From a virus (taxonomy: Duplodnaviria; Caudoviricetes), in the IMG/VR virus record IMGVR_UViG_3300025401_000648: a DNA stretch of 64,000 bases; one strand, 5' to 3'. Positions 12,948 to 26,093 of this stretch are shown here, piece by piece. Below the pieces are notes generated by a model. The model saw only the letters and a program-made list of their open reading frames with translations. It was not told where the DNA came from and did no database searches. The number at the start of each line of letters is the position of its first letter. The first letter of the stretch is position 1. The position numbers and the translations under genes are program-made.

Positions 12948-12997
12948 GCGAGCCATAAATCGCATCATGGTATTTGAGAGCCGTAAATCTCAAGGAG
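12948..12997 (+). promoter_or_regulatory. Tandem hairpins with GCCRTAAA loops abutting the DNA polymerase SD (candidate translational operator)
   Basis: GCGA-GCCATAAA-TCGC (12948-12963) and TTGAGA-GCCGTAAA-TCTCAA (12974-12993), then GGAG. Confidence 0.55.
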
Positions 12998-13006
12998 AAA
13001 AATAAT

Positions 13007-15676
13007 ATGAGTTATGTTGATGCCATTTGGGATCGCGAAAAAGACATTGTCAAAGTCATTGAGCGTGATCCAAAACAGGGTAGACTCTATCAAGAGTACA
13101 ATGCCCGCTATCTATTTTATTATCCAGACCAACGAGGAAAATTCAAAAGCATCTTTGGAGAAAACTTATCCAAAGTAACTGCTCGTAGCTGGAAAGAATT
13201 CATTAAAGAACAAAAAATCCATTCTTCTCATAAACTATATGAGAGCGATATCAATCCTGTATTCCGTTGTTTAGAAGAAAACTATCTTGGCAAAGATGCT
13301 CCAAAATTAAATGTAGCATTTTTTGATATTGAGGTGGACTTTGATCCAGAACGTGGCTACGCAAGTCCAGACGATGCGTTTATGCCAATTACTGCGATTG
13401 CTGTCCACCTACAATGGATGGATACTCTAGTATGCCTTGCTGTTCCTCCAAAGACTTTAACCATGGAACAAGCACAAGATCAAGTTAAAGAATTTCCCAA
13501 CACTATACTGTTTGAAACAGAATACGAAATGTTGGATACATTCTTAAATCTAATTGAAGATGCTGATGTGCTAAGTGGATGGAACAGTGAAGGGTTTGAT
13601 ATTCCCTATACTGTTAATCGTGTTACAAAAGTTCTAAGTAAAGAAGATACCCGTAGATTTTGTCTTTGGGGAGCCATGCCAAAGAAACGTGAATTTGAAA
13701 AATATGGAAAAACTGCTGTTACCTATGACCTTGTTGGTCGTGTTCACCTTGATAGTCTCGAGTTGTACAGAAAATATACCTATGAAGAACGCCACACATA
13801 TCGACTGGATGCAATTGGAGAGATGGAAATAGGCGAAAGCAAGACTGTTTACGAAGGTACGTTGGACCAGTTATACAATAATGATTTCCGTAAATTTATT
13901 GAATATAATAGACAAGACTGTGCCTTGCTTGATAAGTTGGATAAAAAGTTAAAATTCATTGACCTTGCTAATACTGTTGCTCACGAAAATACTGTGTTAC
14001 TACAAACTACAATGGGTGCTGTGGCTGTTACAGAACAGGCTATTGTAAATGAAGCACATCACAGAGGTATGATGGTACCAAGTCGCCCCAAACGAGATGA
14101 TACCGTAAGTAATCAGGCGGCAGGTGCGTATGTTGCTTATCCAAAAAAAGGCATCCATGACTACATTGGATCAATGGATATTAACAGTTTGTACCCGTCT
14201 GTGATTCGTGCGCTGAACATGGGTCCAGAAACGATTGTGGGTCAGTTACGCCAAGATTATACTAAAGAAGAAATTGAAAACAAAATGGCCAAGAAAGAAA
14301 GTTTCGCTGGCGCATGGGAAGGTAAGTTTGGCAGTAATGAATATGAATTTGTTATGAACCGAGATCGAAGTCATGATATTATCATTGATTGGGAGAATGG
14401 CGAAACCACTATTATGAGTGGTGCTCAAATTTATGAACTTATCTTTGAAAGTAATAATCCATGGATGCTAAGTGCCAATGGTACTATCTTTACCTATGAA
14501 AAAGAAGGTATCATTCCTGGTTTACTAAAACGTTGGTATAGTGAACGTAAAGAAATGCAGGCCAAGCTCAAAGAAGCAATTAAAGCGGAGAATAAAATTG
14601 AAGAAGAATACTGGGACAAAAGACAACTGGTTAAAAAAATTAACCTCAATAGCCTATATGGTGCTATTCTTAACGCTGGTTGTAGGTTCTTTGATAATCG
14701 TATTGGACAATCCACAACTCTTTCCGGACGTGGTATCGCCCGCCATATGGCCGCAAAGATAAATGAAGTTATCACTGGAGAGTACAACCATATTGGTAAA
14801 AGCATTATCTATGGTGATACTGACTCTGCCTACTTTAGTGCTTATTCATCTTTAAAGAACGAAATTGCCAAAGGTGAAATTCCTTGGAACAAGGACACAG
14901 TGGTTCAACTATATGATACCATTGCTGAAGAAGTAAATTCAACATTCCCAGATTTCATGCTAGAAGCACATCACTGTCCTCGCAGCCGTGGCGATGTTAT
15001 CCGTGCTGGTCGTGAAATTGTTGCTATCAAAGGCCTGTTTATTACCAAGAAGCGTTATGCCGTACTGTATTATGACAAGGAAGGCAAACGCAGTGACGTA
15101 GATGGCAAGCCAGGTAAGATCAAGGCCATGGGCTTGGATTTGAAACGCAGTGACACTCCTGAATTTATGCAGAAGTTTTTGGAAGAAGTTCTTACCAAAG
15201 TACTCAATGGTAGTGAAGAAAAAGAAATTCTAGAGATGATCAGTGAATTCCGTACAGAATTTAAAGCCCGACCAGGTTGGGAGAAAGGAAGTCCAAAACG
15301 TGCCAACAACATTACAGAATATCAAGAAAAAGAGAAGAAATTTGGCAAGGCTAATATGCCTGGTCATGTTAGAGCAAGTATTAATTGGAATACGCTCAAA
15401 AGAATGAATGGTGACAAATACAGTCAGCAAATTGTTGATGGTATGAAAGTTATCGTTTGTAAACTAAAGGGTAACCCCTTGGGATATACATCAGTAGCAT
15501 ATCCTGTGGACGAACTACGGTTGCCTAAATGGTTTCAAGAACTTCCGTTTGATCATGAAGAAATGGAAGCTACCATTATTAACAATAAGATTGAAAACCT
15601 TATTGGCGTATTAGAATGGGACTTGAGCAGTACTACTGAGACTAATACGTTTGGCAACTTGTTTTCGTTTGATTAA
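13007..15676 (+). CDS. gp43: Family B DNA polymerase (T4 gp43-like)
   Basis: Exonuclease FFDIE, WNSEGFD, YNRQD; polymerase DINSLYPS, KINLNSLYG, YGDTDS, KKRY; start at ATG 13007 after AAGGAG. Confidence 0.97.
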   Translation: MSYVDAIWDREKDIVKVIERDPKQGRLYQEYNARYLFYYPDQRGKFKSIFGENLSKVTARSWKEFIKEQKIHSSHKLYESDINPVFRCLEENYLGKDAPKLNVAFFDIEVDFDPERGYASPDDAFMPITAIAVHLQWMDTLVCLAVPPKTLTMEQAQDQVKEFPNTILFETEYEMLDTFLNLIEDADVLSGWNSEGFDIPYTVNRVTKVLSKEDTRRFCLWGAMPKKREFEKYGKTAVTYDLVGRVHLDSLELYRKYTYEERHTYRLDAIGEMEIGESKTVYEGTLDQLYNNDFRKFIEYNRQDCALLDKLDKKLKFIDLANTVAHENTVLLQTTMGAVAVTEQAIVNEAHHRGMMVPSRPKRDDTVSNQAAGAYVAYPKKGIHDYIGSMDINSLYPSVIRALNMGPETIVGQLRQDYTKEEIENKMAKKESFAGAWEGKFGSNEYEFVMNRDRSHDIIIDWENGETTIMSGAQIYELIFESNNPWMLSANGTIFTYEKEGIIPGLLKRWYSERKEMQAKLKEAIKAENKIEEEYWDKRQLVKKINLNSLYGAILNAGCRFFDNRIGQSTTLSGRGIARHMAAKINEVITGEYNHIGKSIIYGDTDSAYFSAYSSLKNEIAKGEIPWNKDTVVQLYDTIAEEVNSTFPDFMLEAHHCPRSRGDVIRAGREIVAIKGLFITKKRYAVLYYDKEGKRSDVDGKPGKIKAMGLDLKRSDTPEFMQKFLEEVLTKVLNGSEEKEILEMISEFRTEFKARPGWEKGSPKRANNITEYQEKEKKFGKANMPGHVRASINWNTLKRMNGDKYSQQIVDGMKVIVCKLKGNPLGYTSVAYPVDELRLPKWFQELPFDHEEMEATIINNKIENLIGVLEWDLSSTTETNTFGNLFSFD

Positions 15677-15731: not shown

Positions 15732-16466
15732 ATGCAAGACTTACTTAAAGATATCGTGTCGCACACAAATAAACTGGGATTTCTTAACATTGTTAAGATC
15801 ACAGGCACTGATGAAGAAACATTAATCGACAGCATGGCTGAAGACCGTACTGTTGTTATGTACGCAAAAACTGCCAATCCTTATCCACAATTAATTGGTA
15901 GTTTTGGTATGCCACAACTTGAAAAATTACGCTACTTGTTAGAAGGTAAAGAATATCAAGAAGATGCCAAGATTGATTTGGTAACTGCTACCCGTAACAA
16001 TGAAACAATTCCGGTTGGACTTCACTTTGAAAACAAAGATGGCGATTTCAAAAATGATTATCGTTTCATGAACAAGGAAGTCATTGACGAAAAATTGAAA
16101 ACAGTTAAATTCAAAGGTGTCAATTGGAATGTCACAGTTAGCCCAAGTGTTAATTCAACACAACGTTTCCAATTCCAGTCAGGTGCTAATACAGAACATA
16201 CACACTTCTTGGCTAAAACAGATGGCGATAAATTGATTTTCTCATTCGGTGATGTAGCAAGTCACGCTGGTGAGTTTGTGTTTGCCACAGGCGTTACAGG
16301 TAAAATTAGCAAGTCCTGGACATATCCAGTTGTGCCTGTACTGAGCATTTTGAAAATTGCCGATGCTAACAATACAAAAATGAGTTTTAGTGATGGTGGT
16401 GCTCTACGTCTTGAATTAGACAGCGGCATTGCTACTTATGAATACATTGTTCCAGCCAAGGTATGA
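15732..16466 (+). CDS. Probable sliding clamp (gp45/PCNA-like)
   Basis: 244 aa, directly after the polymerase; C-terminal LRLELDSGIATYEYIVPAK resembles the PCNA-type last strands. Confidence 0.55.
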   Translation: MQDLLKDIVSHTNKLGFLNIVKITGTDEETLIDSMAEDRTVVMYAKTANPYPQLIGSFGMPQLEKLRYLLEGKEYQEDAKIDLVTATRNNETIPVGLHFENKDGDFKNDYRFMNKEVIDEKLKTVKFKGVNWNVTVSPSVNSTQRFQFQSGANTEHTHFLAKTDGDKLIFSFGDVASHAGEFVFATGVTGKISKSWTYPVVPVLSILKIADANNTKMSFSDGGALRLELDSGIATYEYIVPAKV

Positions 16467-16837
16467 TAAAGGGTATAAATCAGGGCGGGAGATATATTAG
16501 TGTTACCGGCGGAATGCCGGGCAGTAATTATATTAACAATTACTCTGGCGCACAAGGTATCGGTAACATGCGATTCAATACTTCTACACAAAATGTGGAA
16601 GTATGGGATGGCAATAATTGGATGACCTTACAAACATCTTATGCTACAGTTCAATTAGATAGTGAAGCAACAAGTCTACTAGATTGGGCTAAAGAAAAAC
16701 GTGATGAAGAATGGAAGATGCAGGAGTTGATTAAAACCAATCCTGCTGTTAAAATAGCGTATGACAATGTTTTGAAAGCACAAGAACAATTAAAGATAAC
16801 AACTATATTGAGTACAGATGAAAAAACCACCAGTTAA
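16463..16837 (+). CDS. Hypothetical protein
   Basis: 124-aa ATGA-coupled ORF. Confidence 0.7.
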   Translation: MIKGINQGGRYISVTGGMPGSNYINNYSGAQGIGNMRFNTSTQNVEVWDGNNWMTLQTSYATVQLDSEATSLLDWAKEKRDEEWKMQELIKTNPAVKIAYDNVLKAQEQLKITTILSTDEKTTS

Positions 16838-18356
16838 TTTGACACCATTACAAATGGATTATGCTGTATATTTGCCAGCCATTAGTAGTTTTTATGGCAC
16901 ATATATTGCTAAACAGAGATTAGAAGAATTTATTCCTAAGGATCGTATACCCACTGGGTTTGATCGAGGCATTGAAGGAATGAATTTCTTAAATGAAGAA
17001 GATGGGTACTTTACTTACAAATATGGTCTTTATTCAGCAGGTCACGCAACTCTAGACCTAAATAAGACTATGACAAAAGAAAGTATGATTCAACAACGTG
17101 ATAGAAATAAAACTCTAATACTTGGCGATTCAGGCGGATTCCAAATTGGTAAGGGCGTACTTAAATTTGATTGGTTAAATTTTGAAGGTCCTTCAGCTAC
17201 CAAGGTACGTCAAAGTATTTTAGAATGGCTAGAAGTAACTGCTGATTGGAGTATGATGTTGGACGTTCCTACGTGGGCGTGTGATCATAATCATACAGCC
17301 AAGACTGGACTAAAAACATTTGAAGATTGTTTGGATAAAACAAAATACAATAACAAATATTTCCTAGACAACCGCTTAGGTCAGACCAAGTTCCTAAACG
17401 TGCTACAAGGTGGCGACTGGGATCGTGCTGAACAATGGTATAATGGTGTTAAAGAATTTAGCGATCCTAAGATATGGGGCGACAAAGCCGCTGAAGGCTG
17501 GGCCATGGGCGGTGCTAATATGAGCATGATGGATGTTACTCTTAAACGTCTAATGACAATGAGAGACGACGGCATGCTAGTGGGTAAAGACTGGATGCAC
17601 TTTTTGGGTACAGCACAATTAGATTGGGCCTGCTACTTAACTTTGATTCAACGACAAATTAGGAAACATATCAATGAAAACTTCACCATCTCTTTTGATT
17701 GCGCCTCACCGTTTATCGCAACAGCACACGGACTTGTCTACACAAACCCACAGTTCTCGCCAAAACGGTGGAGTACTATTATGGAAAAAGCCACAGACAA
17801 CAAGGCACTCGCAACAAGCAAGACTCCTTTCCCCTGGGAAAGTGAAATTGGAAGCCGCTTGACAATGGGTGATATCTGCTGGTATCAGCCAGGCATGTTA
17901 AACAAGATTGGCAAAGAAGGCAAAACATCATGGGATAGTTTTAGCTATGCTCTTATGATGGCACATAATGTTAACAGTCACATTTCCAGTGTACAACGTG
18001 CTAATCATTTAGTAGATATCGAATGTACAAGATATCAGCCAAATTGGAAGTTATGGGGAATTGAAGGTAAGAAAGAAAAAGAATACAGTGACTGGGTTCC
18101 ACGTAGGATTTTATACTTTAGCCGTTTTATCAAAGAGCTGTTTGAAACAACATCAAAACAAGAAGCATTTGATATGATTGAAGAAGGTATTGGATTTTTA
18201 CGTAGCCTAGAAGGCACACGTAGCCAAGATGGTATGGCACGTAATACATTCTTTAATTTATTTGAAGAAGAAGCTAAAGATGAAAATGATTTAGACTTGT
18301 CTAATCCCGACGATGACGAATTACGTGCTTTAGAAGAAAGTGTTGACAGTGAATAA
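16818..18356 (+). CDS. tRNA-guanine-transglycosylase-fold protein, probably a DpdA-like deazapurine DNA transglycosylase
   Basis: DSGGFQ, MLDVPT, VLQGG, GWAMGG, HFLG, SFDCASP, MAHNV; the three TGT catalytic/binding Asp equivalents are present; QueE and QueD-like genes nearby. Confidence 0.8.
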   Translation: MKKPPVNLTPLQMDYAVYLPAISSFYGTYIAKQRLEEFIPKDRIPTGFDRGIEGMNFLNEEDGYFTYKYGLYSAGHATLDLNKTMTKESMIQQRDRNKTLILGDSGGFQIGKGVLKFDWLNFEGPSATKVRQSILEWLEVTADWSMMLDVPTWACDHNHTAKTGLKTFEDCLDKTKYNNKYFLDNRLGQTKFLNVLQGGDWDRAEQWYNGVKEFSDPKIWGDKAAEGWAMGGANMSMMDVTLKRLMTMRDDGMLVGKDWMHFLGTAQLDWACYLTLIQRQIRKHINENFTISFDCASPFIATAHGLVYTNPQFSPKRWSTIMEKATDNKALATSKTPFPWESEIGSRLTMGDICWYQPGMLNKIGKEGKTSWDSFSYALMMAHNVNSHISSVQRANHLVDIECTRYQPNWKLWGIEGKKEKEYSDWVPRRILYFSRFIKELFETTSKQEAFDMIEEGIGFLRSLEGTRSQDGMARNTFFNLFEEEAKDENDLDLSNPDDDELRALEESVDSE

Positions 18357-18825
18357 ATTTACAGATTTTCCAGAACAACCTAGAGTAATGCGTGACGCAG
18401 AGGGCGAAGCATATTTTAGTATTATGCTGGCCCAAATTGCAGATTTCAATCCTAACGAAATCATTGCTGTGGCACGTAGCGGATTTAGTTATGCTATGTG
18501 GGTAGCGCAAATGCTTAAATTACCATTAGGTGCTTATTGGGCAGAGCGAGGTGAACTGGTCACCGGCAGTGATCCAGAACGTATTGTATTTGTAGATGAC
18601 AATATTGTATCTGGTAGTACATATAAAGATACAAAACTTTTTATGGAACGGTATTATCCCAATACTGAATGGCGTTGGGCTGTATTATTTACTGACTGGC
18701 ATACTCCGAAAGAAATATGCGATGAAGTCATTCAAGGTGTAAAACTTCCTTACTTTGCTGAAGAGCCAATGTGGGGTAGCAAAAAAATTAGTCAAGATTA
18801 TGGCATAAGGTACAGAGATGAATAA
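18340..18825 (+). CDS. Type I phosphoribosyltransferase-like protein
   Basis: IIAVARSG and IVFVDDNIVSGSTY (PRPP-binding loop). Confidence 0.75.
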   Translation: MLTVNKFTDFPEQPRVMRDAEGEAYFSIMLAQIADFNPNEIIAVARSGFSYAMWVAQMLKLPLGAYWAERGELVTGSDPERIVFVDDNIVSGSTYKDTKLFMERYYPNTEWRWAVLFTDWHTPKEICDEVIQGVKLPYFAEEPMWGSKKISQDYGIRYRDE

Positions 18826-19234
18826 TATTAGAATCGCATTTGATATGGACGGGGTATTACTACCCGATTTTCATAAAATTCCTCAGTTAAATGATGATGA
18901 ATTTTTCGAGCATACATTATATGCTAGGCCCATGTTTTCGCCAGTTGGTGTTTTTGATGTGGTCACTGCCCGTACAGAAGATCGTCGGCCAGTTACACTA
19001 GAATGGCTCAAACAGTTATCCACTCCGCCACAAAATTTGTTTATGAAGCCTGTGAATAGTGATGAAACTCCAGCTGAATACAAATATCGTAAGTGTATTG
19101 AAGAAGGTTATAAAATTTTTGTAGAAAGCGAACCCAGTATTGTTTTAGAAATGCGTGAAATGGCATTGATTGATAACACAGACTTAATGGTTATTCATTT
19201 TTCTGGTTTCGTTTCAAGAGGATTTGAATTGTGA
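18818..19234 (+). CDS. Cap-less HAD-superfamily phosphatase
   Basis: IAFDMDGVL (DxD motif I), VVTAR (motif II), YK (motif III). Confidence 0.8.
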   Translation: MNNIRIAFDMDGVLLPDFHKIPQLNDDEFFEHTLYARPMFSPVGVFDVVTARTEDRRPVTLEWLKQLSTPPQNLFMKPVNSDETPAEYKYRKCIEEGYKIFVESEPSIVLEMREMALIDNTDLMVIHFSGFVSRGFEL

Positions 19235-20112
19235 AAAGTCTAATCGTAGGTATGGGGATTGGCAATCTCTACAAAGCAGTATTAACTAATTTAGGACACG
19301 AAGTTGTTACTGTGGATATCAATCCATCAGCAAATGCTGACTATCCCACAATTGGAGACGCTTGCCTTAAGCACAAACATTTTGATACCGCACACATTTG
19401 TACTCCAAATTATCTACATAATATTCATGCTAGGTCTGCGGCCAATTGTGCTAAAATTATATTTGTGGAAAAACCAGGTGTTGCTAATGCCAAAGATTGG
19501 TTGGAGTTAGTCAGCTATTTTCCTAAAACAAGATTCATGATGGTTAAAAATAACCAATGGCGAGATAATATTGAACGTATGCGTGAATTGATGATTGACT
19601 CAGATTCAATATCAATTGATTGGTTAAATCAAGATCGTGTGCCCAATCCTGGAACATGGTTTACCACAAAACACTTGGCATATGGCGGAGTTAGTAGAGA
19701 TTTAATGCCTCACTTGTTGAGCTTGTTTATGGCTTTAGACCCAGAATACATGACATCACGTGAATTAGAAAGATCGATTGACCGTAAATGGAAATTGTGT
19801 GATCTCACAAAGACAGATTATGGCAGAGTTAACGAACATGGCACATATGATGTCGATGACTACTTTAAATTAAATTTCATGTGTAATGATCGAGCTTGGA
19901 GTTTGACCGCAGACTGGCGTACTCTAAAAGAAGATCGTAGAGCTATTACATTTAATTTAAAAGATGGCGGTGCTGAAGTTATTGAATTAGGATTATGTCC
20001 AGAAGAAGCATACCAAGTCATGATCAAAGATGCTATTGATAATTTAGAAAATAATTTATTTTGGAATAACCAATTACTACAGGATTACTGGATTCACAGT
20101 AAGATAGAATGA
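19231..20112 (+). CDS. Gfo/Idh/MocA-family NAD(P) oxidoreductase
   Basis: LIVGMGIG Rossmann motif, ICTPNYLH, FVEKP. Confidence 0.85.
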   Translation: MKSLIVGMGIGNLYKAVLTNLGHEVVTVDINPSANADYPTIGDACLKHKHFDTAHICTPNYLHNIHARSAANCAKIIFVEKPGVANAKDWLELVSYFPKTRFMMVKNNQWRDNIERMRELMIDSDSISIDWLNQDRVPNPGTWFTTKHLAYGGVSRDLMPHLLSLFMALDPEYMTSRELERSIDRKWKLCDLTKTDYGRVNEHGTYDVDDYFKLNFMCNDRAWSLTADWRTLKEDRRAITFNLKDGGAEVIELGLCPEEAYQVMIKDAIDNLENNLFWNNQLLQDYWIHSKIE

Positions 20113-21002
20113 ACGTAAGACTACTACATACTACCGGAAACGGAATATTTGAAGAAACCATTTGGGAAAAGCCTGAACCTTCTGATAACGAAATTGAAGT
20201 ACGTGCTGTTATGACAGGTGTTTGCCGAAGCGACATCGACATGATGATGGGCAATTTTGGGCCACTACCATTACACATGCAGGGGCATGAAGGATTGGGC
20301 ATAGTAACCAAAGTTGGTAGTGATATCACTGATATTGCCATTGGAAATTTTGTTGCTACACGCGGTGAACCCGCTTATGCAGATTTTTATAATGTACGCA
20401 ACACTGAATACACATGGGTTCCTGAACTACACCCTCGCTATATTATTGAGCCAGTAGCCTGCGGTATCAATATTATAGATCAAGCATGGCAACAAATTAG
20501 AGAAAGATCTAATGGAAAAATACTAATCATAGGCAGTGGATTCCTTGCCTGGGTGGCGTTTAATAGATTAAAATCACAACGATCAAATGCCAGTGTTGAT
20601 GTATTAGGATCAAGTAATTTAGAATTATGGGGAGATCAACTGCTGTTAGGAACCAGTGAAAGTTATGATGTGGTCATTGACCTAACTGGAAAATATGCGT
20701 TAGGCTTAGACATTAAACTAAACAACAACGCAATAATTATAGACGGCGTTGGCAAAGCAATTAGTAGAGAGGAAGCACAGCAACAACTTTGGAAAGCCTG
20801 TACTACAATTCGTCCAAGTCCTCGAAATCCAAAATTTCATCAATGTATGAAAGAAGCAGTTTGGATGATTGAAAATTATCATTTAGCTATTGACAATTTC
20901 TGGACTAAAGCGTATAATAGAGATACAGAATGGCAACAAGCGTTTGCGGATGGTAAGGATCGTCCAAACGGTTATAGCCGAGGTTACATTGTATGGGATT
21001 GA
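20109..21002 (+). CDS. Zn-dependent medium-chain dehydrogenase
   Basis: TGVCRSD, GHEGLG, IEPVACG, IIGSG; lacks the four-Cys structural zinc lobe. Confidence 0.85.
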   Translation: MNVRLLHTTGNGIFEETIWEKPEPSDNEIEVRAVMTGVCRSDIDMMMGNFGPLPLHMQGHEGLGIVTKVGSDITDIAIGNFVATRGEPAYADFYNVRNTEYTWVPELHPRYIIEPVACGINIIDQAWQQIRERSNGKILIIGSGFLAWVAFNRLKSQRSNASVDVLGSSNLELWGDQLLLGTSESYDVVIDLTGKYALGLDIKLNNNAIIIDGVGKAISREEAQQQLWKACTTIRPSPRNPKFHQCMKEAVWMIENYHLAIDNFWTKAYNRDTEWQQAFADGKDRPNGYSRGYIVWD

Positions 21003-21532
21003 ATACTGAAGAACGACAAGGAGTCGTTTACTTTACAGGTTATGAAGTAGAACATACTATTTGTCATGGTATGTATACATTGTTTGTTGTAGGCACACCT
21101 CCTGTAGAAGATATCCTACGTATTGCCAACGACTCACAAGCAATGTTAGACGAGTCTAAACGTATCAAACATATCTACTTTGGTACTAGCCAAAGTTTTA
21201 ATCCTCAAGGTATTACATTTCAAGAATACCGGGCATGGGACGATGTCATTCTTCCATGTTTAAAAGCAGACTACTGGGTGACATTAGACTTTGATGTCAA
21301 ACACGCCGAAGGAGTGCTCGAATCTGGATATTCTGAATATCCTAGATTTGTTCCGATGATTAGTGTTAAGCTACCTTACATTAATCAATTTAACTATAAC
21401 GCCACACTTAAACTGGACGACCTCACATGGGGTAAGACTAATCCGGGTGTGTGGACTCATCAACTACATGATCTAATGAGTAAAGACAAATATACTTACT
21501 GGGATCAATATACACAGGACACAGAACTATGA
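20993..21532 (+). CDS. Hypothetical protein; possible QueE-like partial barrel lacking Fe-S cysteines
   Basis: 179 aa; ordered motif resemblance to the 25242 QueE (see findings). Confidence 0.5.
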   Translation: MGLNTEERQGVVYFTGYEVEHTICHGMYTLFVVGTPPVEDILRIANDSQAMLDESKRIKHIYFGTSQSFNPQGITFQEYRAWDDVILPCLKADYWVTLDFDVKHAEGVLESGYSEYPRFVPMISVKLPYINQFNYNATLKLDDLTWGKTNPGVWTHQLHDLMSKDKYTYWDQYTQDTEL

Positions 21533-21894
21533 CAACAAATACATATATCAAAATTCGCACAGAATTTGAAGGTTTTCATTTTTACCCCGACGCAGGTAAA
21601 ATTGATCCACGCATTGAATTTTTAGAACACGAACATCGCCATATGTTCAAGGTCGAAGTTAAAATCTCTGTCACGCATTTGGATCGTGAACTAGAGTTCT
21701 TCCTTGTCAAATGGGCACTACAAGATTTTATCCGAGCAGGCGACCAAAATCATAAGTCCTGCGAAATGATAGCAACAGATATTTTGCAGGACCATTTAAT
21801 TCCTCTTTACGGACCAAATCGATCTTATGAGATCGTAGTATCCGAAGATGGGGAATCAGATGGTATTGTGGAATATACTCCGTCTTTTCATTAA
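21529..21894 (+). CDS. T-fold QueD/PTPS-like protein
   Basis: FEGFH, EHEHRH (HxH metal site), SCEMIA; the canonical QueD Cys is absent. Confidence 0.65.
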   Translation: MTTNTYIKIRTEFEGFHFYPDAGKIDPRIEFLEHEHRHMFKVEVKISVTHLDRELEFFLVKWALQDFIRAGDQNHKSCEMIATDILQDHLIPLYGPNRSYEIVVSEDGESDGIVEYTPSFH

Positions 21895-21920
21895 CTCCTA
21901 TTTTAACAGGAAAATTTAAA

Positions 21921-22184
21921 ATGGCATTGCCAAACTATATTACAAAAACTCTTCAACTGAAGCCCGAAGTCAACAAGATCTTTAATGATCTAGATCGTTG
22001 GTTGGATCACTGTAGGATTAACCTACTGCCCTATAACCCTGCGGACTTGTATCGTAGTCCAGAGTATAGGAAGTTCCAACAGGAGCAAGAGTACTTAGAA
22101 CGTAAAGCACGTCGTGAACGTGAAGGACGTCCAGAGCCAGTTAAACAACGCGAATTCCGCGGCAACTTCAAGCCACGGTATTGA
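21921..22184 (+). CDS. Hypothetical protein
   Basis: 87-aa ORF with SD AGGA. Confidence 0.65.
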   Translation: MALPNYITKTLQLKPEVNKIFNDLDRWLDHCRINLLPYNPADLYRSPEYRKFQQEQEYLERKARREREGRPEPVKQREFRGNFKPRY

Positions 22185-22185
22185 T

Positions 22186-23253
22186 ATGGCAAATATCTTT
22201 CTAATCGATTTAGAAAGTGTAGAAACTAGGTACACGGGGCAATGGAAGTCCCATGTACCTAATATCTTACGAAAGGCAGGACACGATGTTAGAGTTATTT
22301 CCGGACCTGGAGATATTCCTCCAGCAACTACGCCAGGAGCTTTTCTTAACTTTGGTGGCACCAATATATACAAGGCTAATCAAGTTGAACAGATTAGTCG
22401 TTTGTTTTGCTCCGGAGCAGTCAAGCCTGGCGATCATTTTTTGTTCACAGATGCTTGGCATCCCGGAATCATAAATTTAAAATACATGAGTGAACTACTG
22501 GGAATCCCAGTAACTACACACGGCTTATGGCATGCTGGCAGTTATGATCCTCAAGATTTTCTTGGACGTCTTGTAGGAGATAAGCCATGGGTAAGACATG
22601 CTGAGAAAAGTTTTTATGAAGCATTTGATCATAACTACTTTGCCACACAGTTCCATATTGATATGTTCTGTGAAAATTTGTTAGATCGTAAATCTGATAT
22701 CACCATCTATTTTGCCAAAGATAAAATTGTTCGCACAGGTTGGCCCATGGAGTATATGGATGAATTATTGGGCGGAGGAGGCCCGTATGCCAAAGACAAC
22801 CTAATTGTATTCCCGCACCGTATTGCTCCAGAGAAGCAGGTAGAAATTTTTAGAGATTTGGCTAATCATTTACCAGAATATGAATTTGTTGTTTGCCAGG
22901 ATCAATCACTGACTAAGAATGAATACCATACCTTGTTGAAACGTGCTAAGATTGTGTTCAGTGCTAACCTACAGGAAACACTAGGTATCAGTTGCTACGA
23001 AGGTGCTATGGTAGATACTATTCCCATGGTGCCTGATAGATTAAGCTACACAGAAATGTATTATGATACTTTCAAATATCCAAGCAAATGGACTGAAAGT
23101 TTTGAAGCATATCAATCATATCGTCCGCAACTTTGCTATAAATTGGTCAATTACTTAAAAAATTACGAAAAGTTTTTACCACAACTACACAAACAAACTC
23201 AAGACTTAACAGAAAGATTTTTCTCATGTCAAAACTTGCTGACAAAATTTTAA
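22186..23253 (+). CDS. GT-B fold glycosyltransferase (GT4-like)
   Basis: Start moved to ATG 22186; FPHRIAPEK and ETLGISCYEGA donor-binding signatures. Confidence 0.8.
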   Translation: MANIFLIDLESVETRYTGQWKSHVPNILRKAGHDVRVISGPGDIPPATTPGAFLNFGGTNIYKANQVEQISRLFCSGAVKPGDHFLFTDAWHPGIINLKYMSELLGIPVTTHGLWHAGSYDPQDFLGRLVGDKPWVRHAEKSFYEAFDHNYFATQFHIDMFCENLLDRKSDITIYFAKDKIVRTGWPMEYMDELLGGGGPYAKDNLIVFPHRIAPEKQVEIFRDLANHLPEYEFVVCQDQSLTKNEYHTLLKRAKIVFSANLQETLGISCYEGAMVDTIPMVPDRLSYTEMYYDTFKYPSKWTESFEAYQSYRPQLCYKLVNYLKNYEKFLPQLHKQTQDLTERFFSCQNLLTKF

Positions 23254-23705
23254 ATTTGCTCGACCAAATGGGTCGTAAACGTGTTGTACTAGATCGAGAA
23301 GGAAATGAACCTTATCTTATACGCTATTATGTCTTTCTCAAAGACCGAAAGTTATTTCCATTTAATGTGTTTTTACACAAGTTTCTTAAGTCAGACCCCG
23401 ATGATGTGCATGATCATCCTTGGCCTTACGCTACACTAATTTTACGAGGTGGATATTACGAATGGATTCCAAAATTTAATGACAAAAAAGAAATGATTGG
23501 TGAAATTCGTAAATGGAGAGGCCCTGGTCATTTTCGTATATCTCGACCATCAAGCTATCATCGTATTGAATTACAAGAAGGAGTTACTCCTTGGACTCTG
23601 TTTATGCCTGGACCACAACAGCGTGAATGGGGATTTTTAGTTAATAATCAGTGGATACATAATGAACAATATTTGAAGGAAAGAAATGAACAAGCTCATA
23701 CTTAA
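23226..23705 (+). CDS. Cupin-fold protein
   Basis: HDHPW...GGYYE...HRIEL metal-binding cupin pattern. Confidence 0.65.
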   Translation: MSKLADKILNLLDQMGRKRVVLDREGNEPYLIRYYVFLKDRKLFPFNVFLHKFLKSDPDDVHDHPWPYATLILRGGYYEWIPKFNDKKEMIGEIRKWRGPGHFRISRPSSYHRIELQEGVTPWTLFMPGPQQREWGFLVNNQWIHNEQYLKERNEQAHT

Positions 23706-24186
23706 TGATCAGGAGTACAAAGGCCTTGTTGGCAAAATATGTCGGGATATCGCCGTTAGCGGTTGGCGCCCGGATTATATTGTAGGCATCGGTCGTGGTG
23801 GGTTGTTGCCTGCTGTCATGATCAGTCAATATTTTGGTATCAAAATGTGTAGTTTAGATATCAGTCTGCGTGATGGTGGCGATACTGTTAGTAATTTTAG
23901 TATGAGTGAAGATGCGTTTAGCGGCAAAAAAATTCTAATCGTCGACGACATCAACGATACAGGAGCTACAATTAACTGGCTAATGAATGACTGGCGTAGC
24001 TCATGCCAACCCGAGCATCAGGTATGGGACGAAGGTGTGTGGAATGACAATGTTAAATTTGCTGTGGTTGTGGATAACTGGAGTAGCGCATGTCAAGTCA
24101 CTATGGATTTCACAGGGATGGAAGTAAACAAATCAGAACAAGACGTATGGATTGAATTTCCTTACGAGGAATGGTGGACCAAATGA
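23686..24186 (+). CDS. Purine (Gpt/Hpt-like) phosphoribosyltransferase
   Basis: IVGIGRGGLLPA and ILIVDDINDTGAT. Confidence 0.85.
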   Translation: MNKLILNDQEYKGLVGKICRDIAVSGWRPDYIVGIGRGGLLPAVMISQYFGIKMCSLDISLRDGGDTVSNFSMSEDAFSGKKILIVDDINDTGATINWLMNDWRSSCQPEHQVWDEGVWNDNVKFAVVVDNWSSACQVTMDFTGMEVNKSEQDVWIEFPYEEWWTK

Positions 24187-25029: not shown

Positions 25030-25249
25030 TTCAATTAAAAATACATATAAAGAAATGGTCATTAAAGAAGATTCAGGATTTCGACTGGTGTTGAAGAAAC
25101 ATGAAGTGTTGAGTCCTAAAGGTCTTTTTAGTGTTAATTTAGAACAACAAAATTTACGAGATGGTGAAATCTCAGATGTTTCAACATATAACTTCTTTAT
25201 GACCAAAGAAGAAATTCAAGCACTAGCACATGGATTAACACATGAGTAA
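25019..25249 (+). CDS. Hypothetical protein
   Basis: 76-aa ORF with SD AAGGAG. Confidence 0.65.
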   Translation: MLHDSIKNTYKEMVIKEDSGFRLVLKKHEVLSPKGLFSVNLEQQNLRDGEISDVSTYNFFMTKEEIQALAHGLTHE

Positions 25250-26093
25250 GATTAAAATAGCAGAACTATTTTATAGTATACAGGGAGAAGGACGTTATAT
25301 GGGCGTACCAAGTATCTTCTTAAGGACTTTCGGCTGCAATTTCCGCTGTGCAGGATTTGGTATGCCTAAAGGGCAATTGAGCGCAGAAGCAGAAGACATT
25401 GCCACCGTAGTGCATTTATATAACAAATATGAAGATTTGCCGCTAGTATCAACTGGTTGTGATAGTTATGCTAGTTGGCATCCTGATTTTAAAAACCTAA
25501 GTCCTATGTTGACTACGGATGCTATTGTTGAACGCATCATGGAGATATTGCCCTTCAATGAGTGGCGCAATGAACATCTTGTTATCACAGGTGGTGAACC
25601 GCTATTAGGTTGGCAACGTGCTTATCCTGACCTGTTGGATCATCCTAAAATGTCTAAACTAAAAGAAATTACATTTGAAACAAATGGTACTCAAAAGTTA
25701 ACACAAGATTTTAAAAATTATCTTGGAGTATGGAATGGCTTACCTAGGCAAAAACGAGAAATTACATTCAGTGTAAGTGCTAAGTTGCCAGCAAGTGGTG
25801 AAAAGTGGGAAGAAGCTATTCTTCCAGAAGTTGTTTGTGAATATGAAGAAGTAGGCACAGCATATCTTAAATTTGTGGTAGCCACAGAAGAGGACGTTAA
25901 AGATGCAGAACAAGCAATTGAACAATATAGAGCGGCTGGCTTTAAAGGTCACATATATCTTATGCCTGTTGGCGGTGTTGAGTCTGTTTACAATCTCAAT
26001 GCTAAATCCGTTGCCCTTGCCGCAATGAAACGCGGCCTACGTTATAGTGATCGACTACAAGTGCCCTTGTTCAAGAACGAGTGGGGCACTTGA
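25242..26093 (+). CDS. queE: 7-carboxy-7-deazaguanine synthase (radical SAM)
   Basis: ELFYSIQGEG, FLRTFGCNFRC...GCDS, ITGGEP, FETNGT, SDRLQ; Cys motif is CX3CX36C. Confidence 0.85.
   Translation: MSKIKIAELFYSIQGEGRYMGVPSIFLRTFGCNFRCAGFGMPKGQLSAEAEDIATVVHLYNKYEDLPLVSTGCDSYASWHPDFKNLSPMLTTDAIVERIMEILPFNEWRNEHLVITGGEPLLGWQRAYPDLLDHPKMSKLKEITFETNGTQKLTQDFKNYLGVWNGLPRQKREITFSVSAKLPASGEKWEEAILPEVVCEYEEVGTAYLKFVVATEEDVKDAEQAIEQYRAAGFKGHIYLMPVGGVESVYNLNAKSVALAAMKRGLRYSDRLQVPLFKNEWGT

Follow-up and report, generated by a model that had tools for sequence, protein, structure and literature searches.

The 64,000-nucleotide stretch of DNA analysed here (the window), part of the Caudoviricetes record IMGVR_UViG_3300025401_000648, encodes a family-B DNA polymerase, a 244-amino acid (aa) protein and a 512-aa protein related to guanine transglycosylases of the TGT/DpdA type; coordinates refer to the full stretch. 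The C-terminus of the polymerase and the tail of the 512-aa protein contain nearly the same short peptide. We read this peptide as a clamp-docking motif: it would tether the DpdA-like transglycosylase to a PCNA-like sliding clamp, do likewise for a methyltransferase in relatives, and so couple base exchange to replication. We give this reading a probability of about two in three. The two peptides, their conservation, their lineage-specific matching, the fold of the clamp and the conserved TGT catalytic residues are direct results of the analysis.

According to this reading, the phage would be a giant relative of T4 and its 512-aa protein a divergent guanine transglycosylase of the TGT/DpdA type. 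The disordered, acidic C-terminal tail of this enzyme would bear a short motif (N-x-F-x-x-L-F-acidic) that copies the clamp-docking peptide of the phage's own polymerase. The clamp, whose gene lies between the other two, would receive the motif in its inter-domain-loop pocket and thereby keep the enzyme on newly made DNA, at the fork or shortly behind it. There the enzyme would swap guanine in DNA for a 7-deazaguanine-type base supplied by a gene block containing QueE; we infer both the substrate and the identity of the base. The features that carry the argument are as follows.

12974..15676, + strand: family-B DNA polymerase, 900 aa (Pfam DNA_pol_B 1.4e-37, DNA_pol_B_exo1 3.4e-18, phrog_262 8e-198)
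15644..15673, + strand: polymerase C-terminal peptide NTFGNLFSFD, the presumed clamp-docking tail (read directly)
15732..16466, + strand: PCNA-like sliding clamp, 244 aa (predicted by AlphaFold2 and Foldseek)
16818..18356, + strand: putative TGT/DpdA-like transglycosylase, 512 aa, of an unclassified subfamily (hhalign against E. coli Tgt)
18231..18272, + strand: predicted clamp-docking peptide region, residues 472-485 of the 512-aa protein (core NTFFNLF at 18243-18263)

The polymerase and the 512-aa protein share a peptide

The polymerase ends in TETNTFGNLFSFD directly before its stop codon, with NTFGNLF encoded at 15644-15664 (AAT ACG TTT GGC AAC TTG TTT), and the 512-aa protein contains GMARNTFFNLFEEEAKDEND, in which NTFFNLF (AAT ACA TTC TTT AAT TTA TTT) occupies residues 476-482, 30 residues ahead of the stop. 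The 30 residues beyond the motif are mostly acidic, and the acidic tail reads EEEAKDENDLDLSNPDDDELRALEESVDSE. The initial annotation had claimed that the two proteins carry the same peptide and that in the TGT-like protein an acidic tail follows it, and direct reading of both open reading frames (ORFs) confirmed both claims: six of the seven residues are identical. Four of these six identical residues differ in codon, indicating that the likeness is kept at the peptide level and does not stem from a recent DNA copy or duplication. The match of the polymerase tail to the real transglycosylase tail scored 30, a value reached by none of 300 shuffles (mean 13.4, standard deviation 3.9). Among the real genes of the window, the motif is present in the polymerase and the 512-aa ORF only. 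The oxidoreductase at 19231-20112 has a weak third match, NNLFW, which relatives do not share and which was dismissed as chance.

The motif N-T-F-F-N-L-F-E has neither the glutamine nor the terminal aromatic pair of the canonical PCNA-interacting peptide (PIP) box, Q-x-x-[ILM]-x-x-[FY]-[FY], and is thus PIP-like in use but not a canonical PIP box. The initial annotation had also compared it with the clamp-binding tail of T4-type polymerases. The comparison stands as regards the hydrophobic and acidic nature of the peptide, with the qualification that its position is internal here and not terminal. In T4, gp43, gp55 and gp33 dock on gp45 through interchangeable hydrophobic, acidic ends, and an internal copy works too (PMC2988020), so that an internal motif, as in the window's protein, presents no difficulty.

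The peptide is conserved in the clade and enriched in the family

The clade of the window consists of 80 IMG/VR loci (68-88% identity) with 31 distinct polymerase tails and 53 distinct transglycosylase tails. F..LF.F was found in all 31 polymerase tails, and [LM]F was found at the same place in 43 of the 53 transglycosylase tails. Across the aligned clade F482 never varies and conservation of N476, F478 and L481 reaches 90% or more; the flanks are variable, and residues 483-498 contain no conserved column. The motif is therefore a conservation island within a variable, acidic and probably disordered tail. The initial annotation had proposed conservation of NTFxNLF in orthologues as a check and its lack as a refutation. 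The motif, in forms that vary with the lineage, extends beyond these 43 clade tails to PA5oct, Vibrio phage 2.275.O and six metagenomic lineages, so the reading was not refuted on this count.

The wider transglycosylase family was collected by exhaustive HMMER search and comprises 889 representatives after clustering at 50% identity. The results showed that 50 of the 104 full-length representatives have x[LM]F in their last 50 residues, versus 10.9% of 50-residue windows from the protein bodies, which corresponds to a C-terminal enrichment with an odds ratio of 7.6 (p = 3e-18). In 31 of the 104, x[LM]F falls within the last 12 residues.

A variable acidic linker leads from the LF motif to a second conserved element close to the very end of the tail:

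18288..18338, + strand: second conserved tail element DLDLSNPDDDELRALEE, residues 491-507 (clade conservation)

Within NPDDDELRALEE, the clade shows no variation at L505 and at least 90% conservation at D499 and L502. Similar F/D...(D/E)xLxxLE ends were seen in PA5oct and in the family representatives P0126-P0135. The second element may serve as a further docking site, or it may inhibit its own enzyme by mimicking DNA.

The two tails match lineage by lineage

The likeness of the two tails was scored by a measure set in advance, the best ungapped 8-mer BLOSUM62 match between the last 12 residues of the polymerase and the last 70 residues of the transglycosylase. Across nine lineages the mean score was 24.0 for pairs from the same genome versus 17.1 for pairs from different genomes (exact permutation p = 0.0037). 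In every distant lineage with both tails readable, the two resemble each other beyond what the general consensus requires, as seen in the following pairs.

PA5oct: polymerase HFDSLFGW; transglycosylase SFNSLFDV
Vibrio phage 2.275.O: polymerase NNTDLFDW; transglycosylase NNNDLFGW
Metagenomic L084: polymerase KFESLFD; transglycosylase TFDGLFD
L085: polymerase LDDLFDF; transglycosylase VNNLFDFS
L086: polymerase VNKMFTF; transglycosylase AMKLFDFGG
L088: polymerase ILDELFY; transglycosylase LSNLFEF
L089: polymerase IFNSLFSF; transglycosylase HFSSLFSF
L090: polymerase AMKLFNY; transglycosylase AKSLFEF

The matching is visible between distant lineages only: within the window's clade, where the motif is near-constant, self and non-self pairs barely differ (24.6 versus 23.4). 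A homologue in phage Phosso also ends in GLF and was set aside as uninformative, since no clamp is encoded next to it and the phage has a DnaE-like polymerase.

A PCNA-like clamp is encoded between the two genes

The 244-aa ORF has no Pfam or NCBIfam match and falls in a PHROG of unknown function. An alignment of 45 rows was built from homologues (26-80% identity) encoded by the neighbouring genes of distant relatives. With this alignment AlphaFold2 gave a model with a predicted local distance difference test (pLDDT) score of 93.2 and a predicted template modelling score of 0.89; a single-sequence run reached a pLDDT of 36. A Foldseek search of the model against the PDB returned at least 500 matches, and every one of the 50 listed was a sliding clamp, PCNA or another (best E 5.5e-11, template modelling scores 0.6-0.73). 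In BFVD the matches listed included viral PCNAs and T4-type sliding clamps, with clamps or clamp-like processivity factors wherever a name was given. The predicted fold has the two-domain clamp architecture with an inter-domain loop, and three copies co-folded with a pLDDT of about 90. By its predicted fold, the 244-aa ORF is a PCNA-like sliding clamp, in line with the initial annotation, which had taken the ORF at 15732 for the phage clamp. The clamp model resembles PCNA at least as much as it resembles T4 gp45. Profile searches of the clamp and transglycosylase families against PDB sequences yielded nothing meaningful, with no TGT found by the transglycosylase profile. The clamp alignment used there also contained the unrelated Phosso protein.

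More than 3800 database relatives of the clamp family were found. The gene order polymerase, clamp, small ORFs where present, and transglycosylase recurs in PA5oct, in Vibrio phage 2.275.O and in several metagenomic lineages. A clamp-loader-like AAA+ gene (DNA_pol3_delta2, 33 bits, above the Pfam cut-off) was found in G002, a 98%-complete relative of 353 kb, and not in the window. In PA5oct the clamp homologue is gp314 (L001 6912-7658, QCG76195.1; 36% identical), which carries the label 'structural protein' on the basis of virion mass spectrometry. Given the modelled clamp fold, this label should probably be changed, unless clamps are in fact packaged into virions.

The peptide is predicted to dock in the inter-domain-loop pocket

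The initial annotation had suggested modelling the peptide with the clamp trimer. Three copies of the clamp were modelled with residues 464-500 of the transglycosylase by ESMFold2, each chain with its alignment. The peptide came to lie in the canonical pocket, and the complex score (ipSAE) was 0.68, compared with 0.00 for the best of three controls; in a benchmark, the score mark was attained by 58 of 80 solved complexes and by 2 of 110 mismatched pairs. The runs agreed in at least 85% of contacts, with a partner pLDDT of 54-57 (at least 53). Confident contacts of the peptide involve residues 468, 472-478 and 480-485, and those of the clamp involve residues 38-40, 42, 123-130, 196, 199, 222-224, 239 and 241-244. 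On the clamp, the loop between the two domains corresponds to residues 123-130 of the monomer model and the C-terminal end to residues 239-244. We take this to be the site used by PIP-box peptides on PCNA. The model thus supports, without proving, binding of the peptide in the inter-domain-loop pocket of the clamp, and the second refutation named in the initial annotation, no clamp binding, did not arise in the model.

The 512-aa protein carries TGT catalytic residues

The 512-aa protein has no match in Pfam, PHROGs, NCBIfam or PADLOC. A diverse alignment of 76 homologues (28-87% identity to the window's protein) showed D104, S105, G107, D149, H261, G264 and D294 to be invariant, and G106 and Q109 to be at least 90% conserved. 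When the 76-row profile was compared with E. coli Tgt by hhalign, a match of 90% probability was obtained (E 1.7e-6, 182 columns), in which the following two motifs fall on the active site.

17124..17144, + strand: GDSGGFQ (residues 103-109), TGT active-site motif with Asp104, aligned to TDSGGFQ (Asp89) of E. coli Tgt
17691..17714, + strand: SFDCASPF (residues 292-299) with Asp294, the presumed nucleophile, aligned to FDCVMP (Asp264, the nucleophile) of E. coli Tgt

The assignments of both motifs come from conservation and from the alignment with E. coli Tgt. Weak matches to Pfam TGT (PF01702) were obtained for 3 of the 76 family members (best E 0.0045), and the language-model neighbours of the 512-aa protein carry TGT or DpdA domains. 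By its catalytic residues and the hhalign result, the protein is assigned to the TGT superfamily; its TGT-like identity, a guess in the initial annotation, holds at that level.

The window's protein itself has no match to DpdA (PF23859), PF01702 or DUF6610 (PF20314). Its sequence places it in a new, unclassified transglycosylase subfamily and not in the described DpdA1-4 or bacterial DpdA. Identity with DpdA2 was rejected: the family profile found nothing in the genome of phage nt-1, which encodes DpdA2, in a scan that had no positive control. Identity with DpdA3, the 'complete replacement' enzyme, was also rejected; the DpdA3 of phiST has 259 aa, was matched by hhalign with 73% probability over 84 columns and has no LF tail. 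The polymerase of phiST is of the DnaE type.

Genomic context points to a 7-deazaguanine role

A candidate enzyme of deazaguanine synthesis is encoded in the same gene block of the window:

25242..26093, + strand: QueE-like radical-SAM enzyme (NCBIfam QueE 8e-17 to 1e-9, all below cut-off; Pfam Radical_SAM 2.7e-6)

The syntenic gene of PA5oct is annotated as 7-carboxy-7-deazaguanine (CDG) synthase. Homologues of the transglycosylase adjoin QueE in PA5oct, QueF, QueC and FolE in Vibrio phage 2.275.O, FolE in L085, and QueC and FolE in L086. PA5oct DNA is resistant to restriction enzymes that have G in the recognition site, and a modified-G sensor targets it; the study reporting this names QueE and QueD in PA5oct and no transglycosylase (PMC12191111). 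The PA5oct homologue of the 512-aa protein is gp316 (41% identical), the only one found in a search of phage records. Genomic context thus argues for a 7-deazaguanine role of the putative transglycosylase. The initial annotation had gone further and proposed that the enzyme rides the clamp, acts at the fork and has DNA as its target; these proposals are indirectly supported by the QueE-like neighbour and by the modified-G evidence from PA5oct (PMC12191111).

A methyltransferase of a relative carries the same kind of tail

Every ORF of G002 was scanned for tails of this kind. Apart from the polymerase and the transglycosylase, the scan picked out one protein with a C-terminus that nearly duplicates that of the polymerase:

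G002 339996-341060 (L111:16999-18060), - strand: FkbM-family methyltransferase, 354 aa (Pfam Methyltransf_21 1.4e-20)

The methyltransferase ends in NQFESLFDFG and the G002 polymerase in NTFAKLFDFE. All 119 full-length database homologues of the methyltransferase (69-97% identity) have xFxxLFDFG-like ends; a shorter paralogue in L010-L013 has no such tail. The window contains no gene for an FkbM-type methyltransferase. The sequence of the tail makes the FkbM-type methyltransferase a possible second clamp-tethered modifying enzyme. It was also considered as DpdM, an identity that was rejected, DpdM being a DUF3109 protein and not an FkbM protein.

A QueD-like 6-pyruvoyl-tetrahydropterin synthase of G002 (97661-98167, L099:2661-3164, + strand; phrog_2389, 3e-35) ends in EWNEDLFA. 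This NEDLFA end may be part of the fold, or it may be a weak clamp motif on an enzyme of the precursor pathway.

These tails lead to a broader idea, which we hold to be possible and somewhat short of probable. Giant T4-related phages may possess a replication-coupled 'hypermodification toolbelt', in which several DNA-modifying enzymes are held on the PCNA-like clamp by polymerase-mimicking tails. Its members would be the DpdA-like transglycosylase, the FkbM-type methyltransferase and possibly pathway enzymes such as QueD, and nascent DNA would be modified before host nucleases see it.

Weighing of the alternatives

Several results weigh against a clamp-tethered transglycosylase. The passing score of the complex model may partly reflect memory of the many solved PCNA-peptide complexes, so that it shows likeness and not proof. 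The modelled clamp interface is not enriched for conservation (4 of 22 residues, versus 36 of 244), and the clamp homologue of PA5oct is annotated as a structural protein of the virion from mass spectrometry. As to the motif, it lies 30 residues from the C-terminus in the window's phage, inside the tail. About half of the distant family representatives have no recognisable motif, and 10 of the 53 clade transglycosylase tails are altered (forms such as HF, IF, FF, ILTF or shifted hydrophobics), indicating a weaker constraint than that on the polymerase. As to the enzyme, no conserved CxCxxC...H zinc site was seen, and the 76-sequence alignment has no cysteine column that is invariant or 90% conserved. 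The 512-aa protein is below every Pfam TGT or DpdA threshold, its presumed TIM barrel derives from sequence, and the QueE-like gene is the only deazaguanine-pathway gene identified in the window by the scans made.

Clients of the host beta clamp carry QLxLF-like motifs, and many tails of the family (LSLFEF, LDLFD, PDLFG) loosely resemble bacterial beta-clamp motifs. Binding to the phage clamp is a prediction of the model, and the shared motif might serve a partner other than the phage clamp, such as the host beta clamp, the phage clamp loader, a single-strand-binding protein or a helicase. We consider such a partner unlikely: the peptide occupies the canonical pocket in the model, where no control scores above 0.00, the phage's own clamp gene lies directly beside the polymerase gene in every lineage inspected, and the C-terminus of the T4-type polymerase binds the phage's own clamp (PMC2988020). 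The peptide might also be a signal of another kind, for degradation, sorting or packaging, as could be argued from its presence in three unrelated enzymes and from the detection of the PA5oct clamp homologue in virions. However, the carrier with a known precedent is the polymerase, whose tail docks on the clamp, and in G002 the carriers are replication and modification enzymes only; a signal of this kind is very unlikely. That two acidic, phenylalanine-rich tails converged by chance or composition and have no function is scarcely credible and already strongly disfavoured. The motif is short and LF is common, the loose pattern occurring in 10.9% of the 50-residue body windows, but no shuffle of 300 reached the observed match, the motif is conserved amid variable flanks, and both the C-terminal enrichment in the family (p = 3e-18) and the lineage-specific matching (p = 0.0037) speak against chance.

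A different question is whether the docked protein exchanges bases in DNA. It might instead be a tRNA transglycosylase, or an altered TGT-fold protein that regulates the polymerase or competes with it, and the lack of a Pfam TGT/DpdA match, the missing zinc motif and some 200 extra residues relative to Tgt are in keeping with this. However, the two catalytic aspartates do not vary among the 76 sequences and the DSGGFQ loop is conserved with them, deazaguanine synthesis genes are repeatedly linked, PA5oct DNA is G-modified by its behaviour with gp316 as the sole TGT-like gene found there, and there is little reason for a tRNA enzyme to be tethered to a DNA clamp. We therefore regard clamp docking in the absence of DNA base exchange as quite unlikely, and favour a transglycosylase that would act on DNA from the clamp.

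Relation to known systems and significance

The arrangement resembles the clients of the T4/RB69 clamp gp45 in that functionally different proteins share a peptide like the polymerase C-terminus, hydrophobic and acidic, on a variable linker, which in T4 docks on the trimeric clamp and in the present case does so in a model. It differs in the clients, which here would be a transglycosylase and an FkbM-type methyltransferase and in T4 are transcription factors; in the 30 further residues, including a second conserved element, that follow the window's motif; and in the clamp, for which fold search indicates a likeness to archaeal and eukaryotic PCNA no smaller than that to gp45.

DNMT1, UNG2 and archaeal UDG are clients of PCNA on nascent DNA, to which they are recruited through a PIP box in the inter-domain-loop pocket. 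They are alike in that a base-modifying or base-excising enzyme is brought to new DNA by a short peptide; unlike them, the present case has a motif other than QxxhxxFF, a bacteriophage setting and a base-exchange transglycosylase as the putative client.

The DpdA enzymes (bDpdA and DpdA1-DpdA4) also belong to the TGT superfamily, are encoded in phages beside preQ0/CDG pathway genes, and are believed to exchange guanine in DNA for a 7-deazaguanine derivative (PMC6884629, PMC10516641). The window's protein lies outside the described subfamilies, and DpdA action, like 7-deazaguanine DNA modification in general, has been described as post-replicative, with insertion ranging from <0.1% to 100% of G, a spread that is unexplained (PMC10516641). 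Neither of the two key DpdA papers mentions a clamp, and a full-text literature search on clamp-binding motifs and phage hypermodification found nothing. What is new is thus probably a clamp-client motif on a new class of client, a DNA-guanine transglycosylase of a new subfamily, and a coupling not previously described for this enzyme class.

If true, the clamp-tethered transglycosylase would provide a concrete mechanism for efficient, replication-coupled base exchange and the first phage parallel to PCNA-recruited DNMT1 or UNG2. The toolbelt, if it exists, could explain how some DpdA-type enzymes modify genomes very efficiently yet fail alone in E. coli. The tail motif could serve as a signature to predict clamp clients and, given such a toolbelt, to find unknown DNA-modifying enzymes in phage genomes. 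In addition, two abundant 'hypothetical' families of jumbo phages receive putative assignments, the 244-aa protein as a clamp and the protein of about 500 aa as a transglycosylase. PA5oct, a cultivable Pseudomonas phage with suspected modified G, has the same arrangement (gp316), which makes genetics and biochemistry feasible.

Neighbouring genes and minor observations

The gap between the clamp and transglycosylase genes contains one further ORF:

16463..16837, + strand: 124-aa ORF (only weak PHROG matches, all of unknown function)

Small ORFs occupy the equivalent position in PA5oct, L084 and L088. On the 3' side of the transglycosylase gene lie two phosphoribosyltransferase-like genes (18340-18825 and 23686-24186), and the region 18340-24186 also contains a HAD/PNK-like gene, a GFO/IDH/MocA oxidoreductase gene, a zinc-type alcohol dehydrogenase gene and a weak GT1-like gene. 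This gene set suggests further decoration of the inserted base.

In one metagenomic relative, a Tad6-family gene (PF25188) lies between the polymerase and the clamp (L088 3454-3855). A Cas12f1/TnpB-like gene with a PDDEXK neighbour was seen a few kb 3' of the transglycosylase gene on a 272-kb phage contig (L090 11616-12971). Two polymerase genes are split, that of PA5oct by a Hef-like homing endonuclease (L001 1605-6831) and that of L090 by an intein and two inserted ORFs (L090 2955-7154); in both, the presumed clamp-binding tail is retained on the last fragment.

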